Assembly: GCA_043813875.1 (NCBI GenBank)
Contig: JBDRKP010000026.1
Coordinates: forward strand, 1-14,839
Direction of reading: 5' to 3'
DNA: 14,839 nt
Origin: an archaeon
GTDB lineage: Archaea; EX4484-52; B79-G9
Below the pieces are notes generated by a model. That model had not been told where the DNA came from. It did no database searches and saw nothing but the letters and a program-made list of their open reading frames with translations. The translations under genes and the position numbers were made by a program. This document shows positions 1,805-13,648 of this stretch, piece by piece (positions within the stretch are counted from its first letter, which is position 1; each line of letters opens with the position of its first letter).

Positions 1805-3799
1805 TCAGAACAGCGCATACTTGATAATCAAGGCAATGAAGATAAGCGCAATCGTGTTCATGACCTTGATCAGCGGATTGATTGCAGGCCCTGCGGTATC
1901 CTTGAACGGGTCGCCGACAGTATCACCGACAATAGCTGCCTTGTGCGCATCCGAGTTCTTGCCGCCGAAGTTGCCGTTCTCGATGTACTTCTTGGCATTA
2001 TCCCATGCGCCGCCGCCGTTAGACATCTGGATAGCCAAAAGCACACCCGAAAGTATCGAGCCGAGCAGAAGCCCGCCAAGTGCCATAGGCCCAAGCAGGA
2101 ACCCTACTGCAAGCGGCGCAATGACCGCAAGAAGCGCAGGGTTCGTCATCTCATGGAGCGCTGCGACAGTGACGATATCGACGCACTTCGCATAATCCGG
2201 CTTTGCCTTGTAAGTCATGATGCCTTTTATCTCTTTGAACTGTCGCCTGACCTCCTCGACCACCTTGAAACCGGCCCTGCCGACAGCCCTCATATTCCAG
2301 GAACTGAACAGGAACGGTATCATGCTGCCAAGGAGAAGGCCGACAAGCACGCGGGGATCGTTGATAGCAAATACTACAGTCTTGCCCATGATGACCTCAA
2401 TCTCATGCACAAAAGCAGCAAAGAGCGTCAACGCGGCAAGTGCCGCAGAACCGATGGCGAAAGTCTTCGTCACCGCTTTGGTCGTGTTGCCGACAGCATC
2501 CAGGGCATCGGTGATCTCTCTTGTCTTCTGTGGCAGTTTCGCCATCTCGGCAATACCGCCTGCATTATCAGTTATCGGGCCGTAGGAATCAAGAGCGATG
2601 ATCATGGCAGTAAGCGAGATCATAGCCATAACAGCTATAGCAATCCCGTAAAGCCCTGCGAAATGGAAAGAACCAAGGATAGCAGCAGATATCAGGAGAA
2701 TCGGCACTGCCGTGCTCTCAAGACCGACTGCAAGACCTGTGATAAGATTCACTGCAGAACCGCTTAGAGACGCCTCTGCAATAGATCTCACGGGCTTGTA
2801 TCTTGTCGAAGTATAATATTCAGTGATACCGAACAATGATATGCCAAGCGCAAGTCCGATTAGTGTCGTATAAAACAGGCTCATATCAGGCATATAGCTC
2901 TTTGTCACAAAGTAGAAACCGACGGCAGACAATATGCTTGTGCCGATGACGCCCTTGTAGAGCGCACCCATGATGTTCTTCTTCGCCTTCACAAAATAAG
3001 TGCCCGCAATCGACGCGAAAATAGCGATCGATCCGAGCAGCAACGGGTAAATAACATAAATATCTTTTCCAGGAAACAGAAGGCTTCCAAGAAGCATCGC
3101 GCCGATGGCAGTGATGGCATAAGTCTCAAAAAGGTCTGCGCCCATGCCGGCGCAATCGCCCACATTATCGCCCACATTGTCAGCGATCACAGCCGGGTTC
3201 CTCGGGTCATCCTCAGGAATCCCTGCCTCGACCTTGCCGACAAGATCAGCGCCGACATCAGCAGCCTTGGTATAAATACCGCCGCCGACACGCGCAAAGA
3301 GGCTGATGAGCGAAGCACCGAACCCGAAGCCGACTATGGCGAGCGGATCCTTGTACATCATGTAGAACGCGGTCACTCCAAGGAGCGCAAGTCCTGCAAC
3401 AGCCATGCCGGTCACGGCACCGCCACGGAACGCAATCTTCAATGCGCTGTTAAGGCCGTCCTTTGCAGCGTTGGCCACGCGGACATTTGAGCGTACAGAC
3501 ACGTTCATGCCGATATAGCCCGCAAGAGCAGAAAGGACTGCTCCGGAAAAGAACCCGAATGCCGTCGCATAGCTGTCTTTTATTGCGAAAGCAAGGATAG
3601 CGGTTATGATTACAGTGAATATAGCGATAGTCTTATATTCCCTATGCATGAATGCCATGGCGCCTTCGCGGATGGCATCAGATATATCTATCATCTTCTG
3701 TGTGCCTGCGTCTTTCTTCAGGACGCTGCGTGTCAGATAGATTGCAAAAAGTATCGCGGCAACTCCTCCTGCCAACACAAACTGAATTTCTGGACTCAT
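1805..3799 (-). CDS. hppA: Membrane-bound ion-translocating pyrophosphatase, K+-independent H+-PPase type (664 aa)
   Basis: Motifs GGGIYTKAADVGADLVGKVE, EDDPRNP, DNVGDNVGD, DSYGPITDNAGGIAEM, GNTTKAVTK, GGAWDNAKK, GDTVGDPFKD. Start set at ATG 3799, 8 nt after GGAGG. The ORF-track extension to 3946 runs through the tRNA. Confidence 0.97.
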   Translation of the reverse strand: MSPEIQFVLAGGVAAILFAIYLTRSVLKKDAGTQKMIDISDAIREGAMAFMHREYKTIAIFTVIITAILAFAIKDSYATAFGFFSGAVLSALAGYIGMNVSVRSNVRVANAAKDGLNSALKIAFRGGAVTGMAVAGLALLGVTAFYMMYKDPLAIVGFGFGASLISLFARVGGGIYTKAADVGADLVGKVEAGIPEDDPRNPAVIADNVGDNVGDCAGMGADLFETYAITAIGAMLLGSLLFPGKDIYVIYPLLLGSIAIFASIAGTYFVKAKKNIMGALYKGVIGTSILSAVGFYFVTKSYMPDMSLFYTTLIGLALGISLFGITEYYTSTRYKPVRSIAEASLSGSAVNLITGLAVGLESTAVPILLISAAILGSFHFAGLYGIAIAVMAMISLTAMIIALDSYGPITDNAGGIAEMAKLPQKTREITDALDAVGNTTKAVTKTFAIGSAALAALTLFAAFVHEIEVIMGKTVVFAINDPRVLVGLLLGSMIPFLFSSWNMRAVGRAGFKVVEEVRRQFKEIKGIMTYKAKPDYAKCVDIVTVAALHEMTNPALLAVIAPLAVGFLLGPMALGGLLLGSILSGVLLAIQMSNGGGAWDNAKKYIENGNFGGKNSDAHKAAIVGDTVGDPFKDTAGPAINPLIKVMNTIALIFIALIIKYALF

Positions 3800-3837
3800 T
3801 TGAGGTTCCTCCATATTATCGTATAGTTTATAATTAG

Positions 3838-3944
3838 TGGTCCGGATGAGATTTGAACTCACGACCCCCACGTGCCTGATATATTCTGAAAAGAACAGAA
3901 TCTTATTATCAGCGTGGTGCTCTAACCAGCTGAGCCACCGGACC
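3838..3944 (-). tRNA. trnI: tRNA-Ile(GAU) with 33-nt intron at canonical position 37/38 (intron 3874-3906)
   Basis: Acceptor GGTCCGG/CCGGACC plus A discriminator, D arm GCTC/GAGC, anticodon stem CCACG/CGTGG with GAT at 3910-3908, T arm GTGAG-TTCAAAT-CTCAT. BHB motif: CTGA pairs with intronic TCAG, with 3-nt bulges TA^A and GC^A. CCA is not encoded. Confidence 0.97.
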
Positions 3945-3989
3945 ACATTGTTCCAAATATAACTGATTGTTGTTTATTTTTGAAAAAAC

Positions 3990-4227: not shown

Positions 4228-4332
4228 TATAGTAAACGTCATAACTTTTTGGACTAATGACGTTTCCATATAGATTGATGTCTATCGGTTCATTGGTTAT
4301 ATTTGTCCAGCGAGTAACGACATCAACTATAG
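4228..4332. repeat. Bipartite hairpin element, family 1, 'empty' form (A arm + B arm)
   Basis: A: TATAG-T-AAACGTCAT...ATGACGTTT-CCATA (4228-4270). B: TATAG-A-TTGATGTC...GACATCAA-CTATA (4269-4331). Homologous to 8070-8153 and 8468-8530. Confidence 0.85.
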
Positions 4333-4709
4333 TAAAACAGGGGGTGCAAACTGATTCCCAAAAAGCATAAAAATGTATAACCCTGCTTTTTTCTGGAAAA
4401 CTCGAGCTCAGATGAATAGCAAGTCAATCAAGCTATGCAGCAGGCTCTAAAAGCAAGGGCTATTTTAAAATTACACGGTTTTAGAAAAGGAGTTCATGGG
4501 TCATCTGTTTTGTGGTATTTTTTGTAGAATCATCCCCGAATGGTATCCGCATTTATTAATCAGGGCAAAAGTCACTCTAGATGTCACATGTTTCATGGAT
4601 TTCATAACGACTTTTAGAGTGTTCATAATACCAATTAATATATTAGAACAAAAAGTATTTATATTTATCGCATATTTTCTTTTAAATGTATTTTAACAAT
4701 CCATCTCAT

Positions 4710-5945
4710 ATGGACGAGAATCTCTGTACGAGATGCAAGGGGAAAAACCTCTGCGGCAAGCCGTTTTGTACCATACTGTCAAATGTGGGGCAGTTCTCAA
4801 AAGTCATCGAGAACACGAGCGAAAATTTCACCGGCACAAGCCCGCCAAGCTGTTTCGTCGGCCGCACCGATTACCCCAGAGTCAACCTTAACATACTTAC
4901 GCCTTCATATGAAGACAAATATTCATGGACAAGGGACAGCCCCTCCTTCTGGTACAGGAAAGGATTCAAGATCCCGGACATCCTGAAAAGAAGGTCAGAC
5001 ATGGTCGCTGTCCGGTCAAAAGTCGATGTGAAGGCATCGGGCGACAGATTCCTTGATATCGCCCAGGAGATAGCTCAGGCAAAAAACCAGGTCGATGCAG
5101 AATTCTGGCTGAAAAAGAAACCGCGATTCAATATATCCTTCGACTCGAGGCTTGCGCCCATCGGCTCTCCTGCTGAGGTAGAAAAGGCGAAGCTTATTGG
5201 CAATGTATCTGTGTCGCGCCCTGTCGACAAGGCAGTGAGCGATACGGACCTGAAGGCCACCGGGGCGATAGAATATCTCCACCAAAAAAATATCGACGAG
5301 AACACAATAACAAAAATTTTGTCGCTCGGTCTCCTCGGCCTTGAGAAGAACAGGAAGCTTGTGCCCACAAGATGGTCAATAACCGCTGTTGATGACATGA
5401 TCTCAAAAAGACTTATTGAAAAGGCAAAAGATTTCAATGTAACAGGCAGCTATCAGGTATTTTCAAATACCTACCTTGGCAACCACTTCGAGATACTTAT
5501 CATACCGCGCGAATGGCAGTTCGAGGTGATAGAGACCAAGTTCGAGGGGAGCGTCTGGAACCCTGACGGTCAGTCGCCGGTGATATTTTCTGATTATGAA
5601 GGCTACTATGGCAGAAAGACTTATGCGTCAGAAGTCACAGGCGCATATTATTCGGCAAGGCTTGCGGCGCTCGAGTATCTTACAAAGATCAAAAAACAGG
5701 CTGCTGTCCTGTCGATAAGGGAGGTCTATCCTGAATATGATACGCCTATGGGGGTGTGGGTGATACGCGAGACTGTACGGGGCGCATTCCAGAACAGACC
5801 GACGAGCTTTGATGCGCTTGATGATGCGCTGGCTTTTATGAAAGGGCGCCTGAGGTTGCCGTTTGGGCGCTACATGAAAGAGAGCAAACTGCTTCTGAAC
5901 ATCAGGACCCAGAGTACCCTCATGAATTTTGTCGGGAAATGTTAA
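4710..5945 (+). CDS. nreA: Nre-family archaeal DNA repair protein (PCNA-interacting)
   Basis: N-terminal CxxCKGxxLCGxxxC, SPPSxFVGRxxYP, RKLVPTRWSITAVDD, GAYYSARLA, PMGVWVIRE and C-terminal PIP box QSTLMNF. TATA-like TTTTAAAT about 25 nt before ATG 4710. Confidence 0.93.
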   Translation: MDENLCTRCKGKNLCGKPFCTILSNVGQFSKVIENTSENFTGTSPPSCFVGRTDYPRVNLNILTPSYEDKYSWTRDSPSFWYRKGFKIPDILKRRSDMVAVRSKVDVKASGDRFLDIAQEIAQAKNQVDAEFWLKKKPRFNISFDSRLAPIGSPAEVEKAKLIGNVSVSRPVDKAVSDTDLKATGAIEYLHQKNIDENTITKILSLGLLGLEKNRKLVPTRWSITAVDDMISKRLIEKAKDFNVTGSYQVFSNTYLGNHFEILIIPREWQFEVIETKFEGSVWNPDGQSPVIFSDYEGYYGRKTYASEVTGAYYSARLAALEYLTKIKKQAAVLSIREVYPEYDTPMGVWVIRETVRGAFQNRPTSFDALDDALAFMKGRLRLPFGRYMKESKLLLNIRTQSTLMNFVGKC

Positions 5946-5974
5946 GAAGAAGAAAAACATGAAAAAACCAAAGC

Positions 5975-6079
5975 TATAGTCAAGGCACGAATTAATTGAG
6001 TAACGTGCCTTGCCATATACATCAAGGCATTTTGGTTTTTTGTTGAATTTTGTTCATTTATTTCATGCCTTGAGTATAG
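5975..6079. repeat. Bipartite hairpin element, family 2, 'empty' form
   Basis: A: TATAG-T-CAAGGCACG...CGTGCCTTG-CCATA (5975-6017). B: TATAC-A-TCAAGGCAT...ATGCCTTGA-GTATA (6016-6078). Homologous to 13411-13454 and 13570-13631. Confidence 0.85.
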
Positions 6080-6090
6080 TAAAAACTGAT

Positions 6091-6600
6091 TTGGACAAGC
6101 CAATTACAGAGCTTGTGAGCAAAAGTGACCACAGAACATTAGGGATCTGGGCAGCTGACTGTGCTGAGCGGGTATTACCCTACTTTGAAGAAAAATATCC
6201 TCTAGACAATCGTCCCCGAAAAGCTATAGAAGCACTCAGAACATGGGTTCAGACTGGCGTGTTTAAAATGGCTGATATACGAAAGAGTTCACTTACAGCT
6301 CATGCGGCAGCTCGTGAAGTGAAAGAAAATGATGATGCAGCCCGATCTGCTGCCCGTGCCGCAGGTCAAGCGGTGGCGACTGCGCATGTTCCTACTCATG
6401 CTATCGCAGCTGCGGTCTATGCAGCATCCGCGGTTCGCGATGCAACCGGCTCCATTGATGATACTACTAAGGAACGAGATTGGCAATACCAACACTTGCT
6501 CGATATGAACAAAACATTTGGTACAACTTATCCTACAAAGCAAATGCTCTGGAGGTCTCGGCAAAATCTCTCTTTGCCAGCATCAAAATTATATTTTTAA
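6091..6600 (+). CDS. Imm5-like 'putative immunity' helical protein
   Basis: DHRTLGIWAADCAERVLPYFE...RPRKAIEA...AARAAGQAVATAHVPTHA signature. TTG 6091 is the likely start. The ORF-track N-terminus (6010-6090) is largely translated hairpin element. Confidence 0.8.
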   Translation: MDKPITELVSKSDHRTLGIWAADCAERVLPYFEEKYPLDNRPRKAIEALRTWVQTGVFKMADIRKSSLTAHAAAREVKENDDAARSAARAAGQAVATAHVPTHAIAAAVYAASAVRDATGSIDDTTKERDWQYQHLLDMNKTFGTTYPTKQMLWRSRQNLSLPASKLYF

Positions 6601-6711: not shown

Positions 6712-7956
6712 ATGATGGAAAATACAACATCATTTAAACATCTGAACTTAATACCGGCGCTCGAAAAAGCACTGACCAAACAAGGATATACTGTACCCAC
6801 ACCCATACAATCAAAGTCAATCCCGGGCCTGTTGCAGGGCAGAGATCTGATCGGCATCGCGCAGACAGGCACTGGCAAGACGGCAGCATTCATATTGCCG
6901 ATACTGCAAAGGATGACCGAAAAACATCCACGGGAAATCAGGACCCTGGTACTTGCTCCCACGCGGGAACTTGCTGCACAGATCGGAGAAAGTTTTTCTG
7001 CATACGGTGAGTTTCTCAGATTCAAACACACAGTGATTTTTGGTGGAGTGAGCCAGGGACGGCAAGTCCAGGCCTTATCTGACGGTGTAGACATTCTTGT
7101 TGCAACACCCGGTCGGCTGCTTGATTTGATGAACCAGAGAAAACTCACACTGGATAAGATAGAATTTTTCGTATTGGATGAAGCAGACAGGATGCTTGAT
7201 ATGGGATTCATCCATGATATAACAAAAATAATCAGAAGATTACCGCATAAAAGACAATCATTTTTTTTCTCAGCTACAATGTCCCCGGAGATCAACAGGC
7301 TTGCAAAAACACTGCTCAATGATCCCATCCATGTCGAAGTCACAGCCCAGGCAACTACTGTTGAGCGCGTAAGACAATGCATCTATTTTGTTGACCAGTC
7401 CTCAAAAGAAAAATTATTGCTTGAACTCCTGAAACAGGAACATCTTACAAGTGTTCTGGTTTTCACCCGGACGAAACATCGGGCAAACAAAGTAGCATTA
7501 TTTCTTCGCAATAATAATATCTCCTCTGACGTGATCCATGGAAATAAATCACAAAACGCAAGAACCAAGGCAATCTACGATTTCAGAACCGGCAGAACCA
7601 AAGTATTGGTCGCGACCGATATTGCTGCGCGAGGGATAGATATTGATGATATTTCGCATGTCATTAATTTTGAACTCCCGAACGAACCAGAAAGCTATGT
7701 CCACAGGATCGGCAGGACTGCCCGGGCCGGAGCGGACGGTACAGCATTTTCATTCTGCTCAGCCGATGAAAGGGGTTATCTTAAGGATATAGAAAGATTG
7801 ATAAGACAAAAGATTGAAGTCATTGATCATAGATTTCATTCAGATGTCGCTCAAAACGCAACAGGTGTAGCAGCCAAATGCGCTGCAAAAAAGAGGAAAC
7901 CATTCTCTAAAAATTTCAATCATAACAATAGGCCTAGACGTGGTTTTAGAAGATGA
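6712..7956 (+). CDS. DEAD-box ATP-dependent RNA helicase, RhlE-like
   Basis: Q motif (GYTVPTPIQ), [48 protein letters not shown] and a basic tail. TATA-like CTTTATAA about 25 nt upstream. Confidence 0.95.
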
Positions 7957-8069
7957 ATGATGCCATATATATCGGGATTTGTTTTGTTATTGCTTCTTGG
8001 TTCCCCAGGATTCGCCTTCGGCACTTGATCATGTTGCAGTCCCGCCTTTGTGCTTGGAGATTTAGGAAG

Positions 8070-8547
8070 TATAGTAAACGCCATAACTTTTTCATGGCAT
8101 TTGCGTGCCAAGCTTTCGAGACAAGCTCAAAATAGACGAATGGCGTTTCCATACATGTAAAAATAGAGATGCTATTTTTACTGTCCAGCGAATCTTTGAG
8201 ATTCGCCCGGATCATTAAAAATCGTTTTACGATTTTTATGATTTCGAAAATTCATGGAAATTTATTGGTATATTGGAATATTTCCAAGCTTTTTCATCGC
8301 CACTATATGCGATGAAAATTTGTTCCAAATTTTCAATTTTCGAAATCACTAAAAATCCAATTCATATAGTGGATTTTTGTGATGACAAAAATCGAGGCTC
8401 TCGATTTTTAGTCATTCGAAATGGGTGAGCATTTTGAAAATCCAGCGAATCTTTGAGATTCGCCAAGATAGATTGACGTCTGTTGGTTTATTGGTTATAT
8501 TTGTCCAGCTATTAACGACGTCAACTATAGTTATGCGAGCAACTATA
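8070..8547. repeat. Bipartite hairpin element, family 1, 'filled' form with internal hairpin chain
   Basis: A arm 8070-8153, about 315 bp chain of 8 hairpin units (8153-8469), B arm 8468-8530 and mini-hairpin TATAGTT...AACTATA (8526-8547). Exact 24-bp direct repeat at 8184-8207 and 8441-8464. Confidence 0.85.
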
Positions 8548-8572
8548 TAATAAAATCTACCAAAAGTACAGT

Positions 8573-9640
8573 ATGGACCCGATTTATACATTCATCATTC
8601 CAATAATCGTAATCTTTTCCATATACTTCGGCGTGCATTACTATGTCTATTCACGGTTGCAGAAACTTTTTCCAAAAATCAGGATCAAGGGGGCAATCTG
8701 CATCCTGGCATTCATGCCCATCATATCAATGATGATTGGCCGGTCATACTATAACATATTCATAAGGATATTTGATGTAATATCATTCAGCTGGATAGGA
8801 ATAATCTTCTTCCTGATCCCGATACTGATCACATGGGAACTCCTGCGCTCCCAAATAAAGCTGGACCAGAAGACCTGGCAGAAAATCATACTGACTACAA
8901 CAATCATAATATCACTCACAGCAATCATCAACGGCCAATCAATCACCGTTAAAGAGATAGATATCCCTCTGTCTGGCCTCAAAGAGCCGCTGAAGATCGT
9001 GCAGCTTTCAGACATACACCTTGGAACCACCCACAACTCTGAATTCCTGGCAAAGATCGTAGAAAAGACCAATGAACAGAATCCTGACATCATCTTCATA
9101 ACAGGCGATCTCTTTGACGGTGCAGGCGGCACAAGAGAACACACGATCAAATCCCTGGATTCACTGGCTGCAATGACATATTTCGTAACAGGAAACCATG
9201 AGACCTATATCGGCATCGGCAAGATAGAAGAAATACTAAAAACAACAAACGTGACATTCTTAAGAGACCAATCTACAGAATACAAAGGACTGCAGATAAT
9301 CGGCATGGACAACCCTGCAAGAGACAACCAGTTCTCAAACCCCGACCTCGCGAAGATAGAAATAGACGGAACAAGACCGTCGATACTCCTTTACCACCAG
9401 CCGCTGGGAATGACTGAAGCGGATGAAAGCGGCATAGACCTTCAGCTATCCGGGCACACGCATAACGGCCAGATATTCCCGTTCAATCTCATACAAAAAC
9501 GCTTCTATCCCATGGTCAATGGACTCTACAAGATAGGAGATATGTACCTTTATGTCTCCCCCGGCACAGGGACATGGGGACCACCGATGCGTCTCGGCTC
9601 AAGAAATGAGATAACTGTCATAAACCTGTTCCCTGCCTGA
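8573..9640 (+). CDS. Membrane-anchored calcineurin-like metallophosphoesterase (YkuE/YaeI-like)
   Basis: N-terminal TM helices, then SDIH, GDLFD, GNHE, YHQP, GHTHNGQ and GTGTWGPPMR motifs. Confidence 0.92.
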   Translation: MDPIYTFIIPIIVIFSIYFGVHYYVYSRLQKLFPKIRIKGAICILAFMPIISMMIGRSYYNIFIRIFDVISFSWIGIIFFLIPILITWELLRSQIKLDQKTWQKIILTTTIIISLTAIINGQSITVKEIDIPLSGLKEPLKIVQLSDIHLGTTHNSEFLAKIVEKTNEQNPDIIFITGDLFDGAGGTREHTIKSLDSLAAMTYFVTGNHETYIGIGKIEEILKTTNVTFLRDQSTEYKGLQIIGMDNPARDNQFSNPDLAKIEIDGTRPSILLYHQPLGMTEADESGIDLQLSGHTHNGQIFPFNLIQKRFYPMVNGLYKIGDMYLYVSPGTGTWGPPMRLGSRNEITVINLFPA

Positions 9641-13410: not shown

Positions 13411-13632
13411 TATGGTCAAGGCACGAATAAATTGAGTATTTATGCCTTGTCATATCCGAAAAATTGCAATGCAATTTTTGGATTTCGAAAATTTATTCTA
13501 AATTTTCAATTTTAGAAATTCGAAATGGGTGTGCATTTCGAAAATCCAGCAAATTGTCAATTTGCTCGGATAGATGAAAGCAAGTTGATTTCTTGTTGAA
13601 ATGCGGTCATTTATTTCTTGCTTTCACTATAG
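13411..13632. repeat. Bipartite hairpin element, family 2, 'filled' form
   Basis: A: TATGG-T-CAAGGCA...TGCCTTG-TCATA (13411-13454). 116-bp insert TCCGA...TCGGA (13455-13570), homologous to the 8153-8469 chain. B: ATAG-A-TGAAAGCAA...TTGCTTTCA-CTATA (13570-13631). Confidence 0.85.
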
Positions 13633-13648
13633 TCCGATGGACTTACTT

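Follow-up and report, generated by a model that had tools for sequence, protein, structure and literature searches.

Nested pairs of unlike hairpins joined by AT dinucleotides inside an archaeal two-hairpin repeat: probable non-autonomous mobile DNA

The window analysed here is an entire contig of 14,839 nt (C26) of the source assembly G000 (1.64 Mb in 90 contigs, 43.8% G+C, 91.5% complete), and encodes the archaeal proteins Nre, H+-pyrophosphatase and a DEAD helicase. It was compared with the seven other genomes of the genus, G001 to G007 (completeness of the eight, 68-91.5%, at which a gene could be missed); C numbers denote contigs of G000 unless G001 is named, and L numbers the compared loci. 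Between the helicase gene, which ends at 7956, and a metallophosphoesterase gene starting at 8573 lies a composite element with a chain of hairpins, whose outermost carrier is a repeat of ~105 nt with two hairpins of its own, hereafter the frame. The composite is the longest among 76 related stretches of G000, which were collected by transitive BLAST closure and total 9,312 nt (Table 1). The family was found in all seven other genomes of the genus, with weaker matches in 9 of 33 more distant relatives, and the repeats are also carried by public MAGs titled 'Candidatus Nanohalarchaeota archaeon'. The gene to the right of the element was matched by an orthologue only in G005, where the upstream neighbour is different and the repeat absent.

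The window has several other features. The Nre gene (4686-5945) is flanked by the two empty frames of Table 1. ORF 6010-6600 has a strong Pfam match to an Imm5-like putative immunity protein (E 1e-43), and its true start is probably later than the annotated one, which overlaps a frame. The sole Rfam match of the window at gathering score is a tRNA on the minus strand (3838-3944, 57.8 bits), not called by ARAGORN in bacterial mode, whose span of 107 nt suggests an intron; as the tRNA and the start of the long ORF 1805-3946 overlap, the pyrophosphatase gene should start further inside. Positions 1-141 are 100% identical to the final 141 nt of C62 and C5, an assembly-graph overlap, and C62 terminates in an IS630-like insertion sequence (HTH_32 and DDE_3, apparently frameshifted), a copy of which the window probably adjoins.

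Table 1. Parts of the composite element and other frames in the window (positions in nt from the start of the window)
Feature	Position	Strand	Evidence or remarks
Whole composite element	8070-8531	+	Frame repeat TATAGT ... ACTATAGT with all inserts
Frame hairpin A	8076-8148	+	Arms 8076-8084 and 8140-8148
41-nt two-hairpin element of the 'CATGG' family	8093-8133	+	In the loop of hairpin A, between TTTTT and AGAC
Linker CCAT and first junction	8149-8154	+	AC here; AT in empty frames (CCAT-AT-AGAT)
Pair 1: A1 (8155-8182), GT (8183-8184), B (8185-8210)	8155-8210	+	Fold, indels
Unit A, left member of outer pair (right member, B 8442-8467)	8213-8240	+	Indels, fold
Unit F, left member of F/G pair, split by nested element	8243-8344	+	Intact F at 13484-13517
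68-nt two-hairpin element of the 'CATGG' family nested in F	8253-8320	+	Hairpins 8253-8288 and 8289-8319
Pair H1 (8347-8381), AT, H2 (8384-8413), at the AT between F and G	8347-8413	+	Seven distinct 69-nt AT events
Unit G, right member of F/G pair	8416-8439	+	Indels, fold
Unit B, right member of outer A/B pair	8442-8467	+	Fold, B-unit alignment
Junction AT, frame hairpin B (arms 8470-8480 and 8517-8526), terminus ACTATAGT	8468-8531	+	
Second filled frame	13411-13633	+	Array A F G B at 13456-13569
Empty frame (CCATATAGAT)	4228-4333	+	No frame in the tRNA-Nre spacer of G001, G002, G004 and G007
Empty frame, second subfamily (CAAGGCA stems)	5974-6080	+	

All eight hairpin units that an earlier note, made from the bare sequence, had placed at 8153-8469 lie at the positions it gave, and each folds alone as DNA (z, from left to right, -7.7, -4.7, -4.8, -5.6, -5.1, -7.2, -3.4 and -5.7), with 0 or 1 of 200 shuffles folding as well as any given unit; the fold of the whole composite reaches z -10.6 on the plus strand and -10.5 on the minus strand. 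The junctions are also as described, with AC at 8153-8154, a GT that matches it at 8183-8184 and then AT seven times (8211-8212, 8241-8242, 8345-8346, 8382-8383, 8414-8415, 8440-8441 and 8468-8469). The shared dinucleotide lies inside the minimum-energy stem in five of the eight units, and is not fully paired in both B units and the G unit. A chance origin of such AT-joined chains is excluded: across 96 sequences (25.4 kb in total), chains of at least two closed hairpins with a single fixed dinucleotide between them and on either side numbered 38 for AT (87 units) and 1 for CA, with 0 for the other 14 dinucleotides. Tiling of the array at 13454-13571 into hairpins by energy, to which 0 of 200 shuffles lent themselves, was dropped as a test of the AT rule, as the method tolerates spacers of 1-4 nt and shifted registers.

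Two simpler readings of the chain were rejected. Taken as a tandem repeat it has no unit-length period, TRF giving just trifles of 8-9 nt; taken as a structured RNA family it matches no curated Rfam covariance model, the chain region having no match at gathering score and, up to E 10, chance-level matches only (best E 1.2 in 7900-8650). A bacterial promoter and terminator scan (4 promoter-like sites against 2.8 expected) was set aside as uninformative for an archaeon; one terminator-like site in it is a unit of a nested element.

The array is real as described, with the addition that it occurs only inside the frame. The order of the frame is TATAGT, hairpin A, CCAT-AT-AGAT, hairpin B and ACTATAGT, and two of its positions act as landing sites. 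Site 1, in the loop of hairpin A between TTTTT and [AG]GAC, receives a two-hairpin 'CATGG' element of 41-45 nt, and site 2, the central AT between CCAT and AGAT, receives the hairpin chain. With both sites filled, the layout in the window can be written as frame{hairpin A [CATGG element]; (A1 B) (A (F[CATGG element] (H1 H2) G) B); hairpin B}. At 8241-8346 the 12-bp closure with its inner hairpins, which the earlier note had listed as one unit of the eight, is present but is not a unit type of its own: it is a normal 34-nt F, as found intact in the second filled frame, carrying a 68-nt two-hairpin element of another family, whose border is ambiguous by 7 nt (GAAAATT/TGAAAATT microhomology against C18 and L030). 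The comparison with 13454-13571 drawn in that note is exact, the extra units here being 8347-8381 and 8384-8413 (69 nt with one AT), which sit between ...TTTTCGAA-AT and TCGAAATG... In the second filled frame AT junctions start at 13454, 13482, 13518, 13544 and 13570, and against the empty frame of C30 its array amounts to a single AT event of 116 nt.

Units follow one order and one orientation throughout, A[F[H1 H2]G]B. All 28 filled arrays of G000 start with an A-type unit and finish with a B-type unit, running from hairpin A to hairpin B, and by manual reading they hold two units (15 arrays), four (7), six (5) or eight (1). The F-G junction occurs 6 times in G000 and 29 times in the loci, and H1-H2 once and 22 times respectively (locus counts include duplicate contigs), with 0 occurrences of the reverse joints G-F and H2-H1 in either set. 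The two members of a pair, be it A/B, F/G or H1/H2, are unlike in sequence and fold separately, and pairs have only 2-3 end bases in common, such as CC...GG. The pairs are nested one within another. On C74 the array is A-AT-B; on C50, F-AT-G-AT separates this A from this B; in the window H1-AT-H2-AT is lodged in turn between F and G, a 69-nt event that is seen in seven distinct forms. In the window and five listed loci H1/H2 is flanked by F and G, in L025 (G003) by J and K. The series continues in L017 (G005), where a further pair, X1/X2, stands between H1 and H2, and in L018, L019, L023, L027 and L031, where a pair P/Q is found inside J/K.

Gain and loss were analysed by an indel scan of 140 sequences, made up of the 76 stretches of G000 and loci from relatives and one metagenome, and only indels with both flanks matching exactly up to the break were kept. 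This gave 77 distinct events; for pairs the evidence consists of comparisons among paralogous frames, with no pair insertion caught between near-identical genomes. The indel is located at an AT in 36 of the 77, exactly at AT in 29 and at AT plus chance-matched bases in seven (AAT, ATT four times, TAT and AAAT). Five more are AT insertions of the H1/H2 type seen against L025, whose G is 7 nt short. Four share an 'A' (three A1-B pairs, with AC on the left, and one site-1 element), ten a 'T' (nine site-1 elements and one B+A pair with a mutated junction) and one, a site-1 element, a 'TG', so that T or TG microhomology accounts for ten site-1 indels; six concern modules of CATGG or related type placed in other loops. 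The remaining 15 are whole pairs with 6-12 nt of microhomology, whose borders are blurred by homologous neighbouring units. The pair borders are AT on both sides in the 29 exact events, and A1 has AC on its left and GT inside.

Lengths of the array indels fall at 54-69, 111-132, 175-187, 230, 298 and 315 nt. A single unit measures 24-41 nt, and as array indels begin at 54 nt, the quantum of gain and loss is a pair of hairpins and not one unit. The distance between hairpins A and B of the frame, in 28 delimitable frames, follows the same pattern, with 5-9 nt in 18 frames, 61-65 in four, 117-125 in four, and 184 and 324 in one each. The idea of the earlier note that whole modules come and go at an AT, and that the array grows stepwise, is thus borne out by the 36 indels at AT together with the 15 blurred whole-pair indels; its picture of single units accreting needs refining in two respects, as what is gained at AT is a pair of unlike hairpins of 54-69 nt, never one unit, and growth proceeds by nesting inside pairs and side by side, not at an end.

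These properties are best accommodated if the chain is mobile, non-autonomous DNA, akin to REP, REPIN and MITE sequences, which inserts itself at the AT linking two hairpin feet, a reading that we consider likely. Each element would be a pair of unlike hairpins, non-coding and 54-69 nt long, made up of a left member, AT and a right member, and integration would take place at an AT exactly between the feet of two hairpins. Since such an AT is the centre of every element, elements would land inside and beside one another; an outer pair would take its contents along on moving, and the frame would serve as the landing pad carrying the pairs. No host function is implied. In its outline the element belongs to a known kind of selfish DNA, and it is the strict AT, the pair grammar and the self-nesting that are unusual.

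The arrays might instead form one structured family, reshuffled by unequal or homologous recombination, gene conversion and palindrome slippage, in which no pair transposes and only frames move. The 15 indels with microhomology inside homologous units would be explained in this way, as would the restriction of pairs to frames or frame remnants, which is what frame-frame conversion predicts, and the retention of the odd AC/GT junctions of A1 in 5 of 5 copies. Slippage products do exist: a minority of changes ignore the AT boundaries that most respect, namely a 7-nt slippage deletion between direct repeats that fuses F and G in L025 and L041, and the collapse of F and G to TTCGAAA between two AT on C70 (7485-7702), all of which are best read as decay products of the F/G pair. 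However, the 29 exact indels share only the 2-nt AT at their borders, too short for homologous exchange, and H1/H2 occurs in the unrelated contexts F-G and J-K. The lack of a tandem period speaks in the same direction, and recent tandem duplication is unlikely because B units within one array (C39) differ strongly. By sequence comparison arrays are moreover decoupled from their frames: C5 and C20 share one 116-nt array (100% identity) in frames that are 67% (hairpin A side) and 79% (hairpin B side) alike, and for C5 and C50 the arrays are 95% identical in frames of 76% and 88%. C26-13404 and C68, with values of 96%, 93% and 86%, look like a copy of a whole frame. Recombination as the only source of the arrays is accordingly regarded as unlikely.

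A frame, for its part, can be present in one genome and lacking at the orthologous site of another. The one at 4228-4333 is missing from the equivalent place in 5 of 5 orthologous spacers, four of which have no frame (Table 1), and that of G003 has a separate frame at another place. A frame holding a B/A pair lies downstream of the helicase orthologue in G002 and is lacking in G001, the flanks of this filled/empty pair (L098/L099) being ~95% alike. At another orthologous site (L111 in G002, L125 in G001) frames stand in opposite orientation a few bases apart in a TA-rich spot, which we read as independent insertions; here a TA target duplication fits and AT does not, and in the other frame case TA, AT and TAT are all compatible. 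With its terminal inverted repeats TATAGT/ACTATA, the frame probably moves on its own through intergenic DNA with duplication of TA, and its route may differ from that of the pairs, for which AT is firm, as ...AGG-AT-CC... and similar junctions contain no TA. When 20 frame regions of G001 were compared with 20 of G002, only three orthologous overlaps and no pair-level polymorphism emerged, and a search of viral contigs with the F-G junction gave 0 matches.

Conservation of the stems raises a different possibility, that the arrays are kept for a host function, as protein-binding or cruciform DNA sites or in protection or termination of transcript 3' ends, their modularity reflecting structural selection. 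Among 42 unique B units, Watson-Crick pairs make up 85% of the stem pairs in register but 22-32% after shifting, and two or more pair types occur at 6 of 10 stem positions. The stems are kept by compensatory change, which speaks for mobile elements as well. Between species the elements are 82-92% alike and the genes 67-84%; the figure for the elements is inflated, as the best of many copies was chosen, and the similarity could also reflect selection for function. T-runs in the loops of hairpins A and B and the intergenic position of the copies (39 of 41 frames wholly intergenic and 2 spanned by a called ORF, from crude ORF calls) would suit such a role. Yet 38 frames have no orientation bias relative to the neighbouring genes (15 divergent, 9 in same-direction tandem, 8 convergent and 6 in opposite tandem, again from crude ORF calls), the distance to the next gene varies widely, relatives are empty at orthologous sites and units per copy vary from 0 to 8. 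Wobble pairs are also without strand asymmetry: over 207 unique hairpins there are 37 G.T and 47 A.C, and since G.T does not exceed A.C nothing points to an RNA read from the plus strand. The wobble balance, the lack of an Rfam match and the absence of a tandem period fit palindromes at the level of DNA, and selfish REPIN-like elements are equally conserved. Maintenance for the host is thus another improbable explanation.

That repeat copies were mis-joined in a metagenome-assembled genome, a possibility raised in the earlier note, is very improbable, because Logan contigs from two sequencing runs match the window at 8203-8353, 8328-8478 and 8355-8577 with no variant, joint or indel (0 differences), F with its insert and H1 H2 recurs in G006 (88% over 8285-8444) and comparably long arrays occur in G005, against which stand the many related arrays at contig ends and the stretches 8098-8148 and 8195-8202, without unique cover in the contigs compared.

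If, as preferred here, the pairs are mobile, copying would be enzymatic transposition by a putative trans-acting protein that reads hairpin structure. A single-strand enzyme of HUH type is the leading guess as to its class, and this is inferred from two features. One is pair 1, whose A1 is 100% identical in five frames of G000 (C13, C26, C39, C40 and C42) of different subfamily and keeps its AC...GT in all five, so that the junction dinucleotides pair across the hairpin and the element carries one of them; the other is the fixed orientation. Both would suit an enzyme of that kind. The same features also count against the preferred reading, as the AC...GT junction misfits a simple duplication of an AT target, and a fixed orientation at a palindromic AT needs the context, or one strand, to be read.

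A more specific version, which we put forward tentatively as possible, sees the pairs as self-targeting minimal replicators of 54-69 bp. A putative structure-reading enzyme would cut and join the AT linker, left single-stranded between two stacked hairpins, always in one orientation, and each element would open a new landing site at its own centre, giving nested stacks; such a logic, operating in DPANN archaea, would be distinct from those of RAYT/REP, IS200/IS605 and DDE MITEs. The strand to be read might be marked by an A.C mismatch at stem position 3, which is conserved in 31 of the 42 unique B units (for instance 8185-8210 and 8442-8467) and appears as G.T on the opposite strand.

No transposase was tied to the elements in G000 and the genus genomes, and this also counts against mobility of the pairs; IS copies are often lost from such assemblies. 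Y1 (IS200-type) genes occur in three of the eight genus genomes, as a fragment on C84 of G000 and as relatives in G003 and G005, and show no link to the elements, as their flanks hold unrelated G+C-rich end hairpins and not the units described here. Searches of G000 (91.5% complete) for TnpB, serine recombinase and IS110 families gave no match, and a parent insertion sequence with the ends of the frame was not found either. The IS630-like copy of C62 and an ISAzo13 copy on C20 were rejected as parents for their unrelated ends, and two IS4/5-like copies and a weak rve match have no link to the elements. The ISAzo13-family transposase (PF07592, E 8e-144; C20:14432-16638, L140) lies between two inverted frames, to which its own ends look unrelated, and among the genes between closely spaced frames this copy is the sole mobile-DNA candidate.

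The nearest known systems are the REP, BIME and REPIN sequences of Proteobacteria, short imperfect intergenic palindromes that are present in tens of copies and form mosaics, according to the accounts in PMC3116915 and PMC3733652; in the latter, one foot of each REP/RAYT palindrome has GTAG (or CGTC) as its conserved tetranucleotide. The analogy suggested by the earlier note is apt, as here too the palindromes are short, intergenic, numerous and clustered, a doublet and not a single hairpin replicates, stems are kept by compensatory change and the family persists across species. Even the residence in a carrier has a parallel, REP dimers being able to occupy the centre of palindromic carriers, as in Anabaena, where they sit inside TATAGGA...TCCTATA palindromes (PMC3733652). 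There are also differences. The REP/REPIN doublet consists of inverted copies able to form one long hairpin and a single-copy Y1 (RAYT) gene is flanked by repeats, whereas the pairs described here are unlike and fold separately, and no such gene was found beside these units. The strict 2-nt AT linker, the several-level nesting and the archaeal host also set the elements apart. GTAG/CTAC and CGTC/GACG are absent from 8153-8469, where the earlier note had seen no motif that it recognised, and without the defining tags the elements are not members of the REP/BIME/REPIN families.

PATEs, the terminal-only derivatives of IS200/IS605, have two end hairpins, no inverted repeats and a fixed orientation beside a short target. 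The elements resemble them in having hairpins at both ends, no inverted repeats and one orientation in 28 of 28 arrays, and a single-strand, structure-reading logic would be common to both. In IS200/IS605, cleavage takes place some bases away from the hairpins, at 4-5-nt words, whereas the borders found here coincide with the hairpin feet and the targets share only AT; moreover, no cognate TnpA element carries these hairpins, the Y1 genes that are present having unrelated ends. Correia/NEMIS repeats are bacterial MITEs that duplicate TA. It is only the frame that resembles them, being non-coding, intergenic and ~100 nt long with short terminal inverted repeats, and TA duplication fits in one informative case; it differs in consisting of two separate hairpins and in being a landing pad for pairs.

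Unlike palindromic non-coding units are also known as M1 and M2 of pithoviruses, which mostly occur together as (M1-M2)n (PMC10664404). Their neighbours share a flanking dinucleotide and no transposase is reported for them, as is the case for the pairs; they differ in their size of ~140 bp, long terminal inverted repeats, use of TA, tandem and not nested arrangement, and host, giant viruses of amoebae. A census of archaeal genomes (PMC11602168) reports DPANN genomes with the highest MITE densities among archaea, without describing their anatomy. No description of the hairpin-pair/frame family was found in the literature searched; the supplements of PMC11602168 may list it.

If pairs integrate only at the AT between hairpin feet, they would provide a clean natural grammar for structure-directed DNA insertion, and would point to an enzyme in an archaeal group whose mobile DNA is almost unstudied. 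There is also a practical side, as the stacks break assemblies, many copies being at contig ends, and give rise to spurious small ORFs (for example minus-strand 7946-8215), for which reason annotators should mask them. At two contig ends of G001 (its C20 and C131; L130 and L125) the same locus appears in two forms, one of which has an additional ~105 nt, two tandem CATGG-type elements, in the hairpin B loop; this looks like a live polymorphism in the G001 population and would explain the contig break. Finally, the end of the frame in the window runs into a separate short repeat at 8524-8547 (ACTATAGT, a 10-nt word and ACTATA), which recurs at 100% over 21-24 nt on C6, on C67 and twice on C34; the reverse complement of its 10-nt word adjoins frames on C6 and C42.
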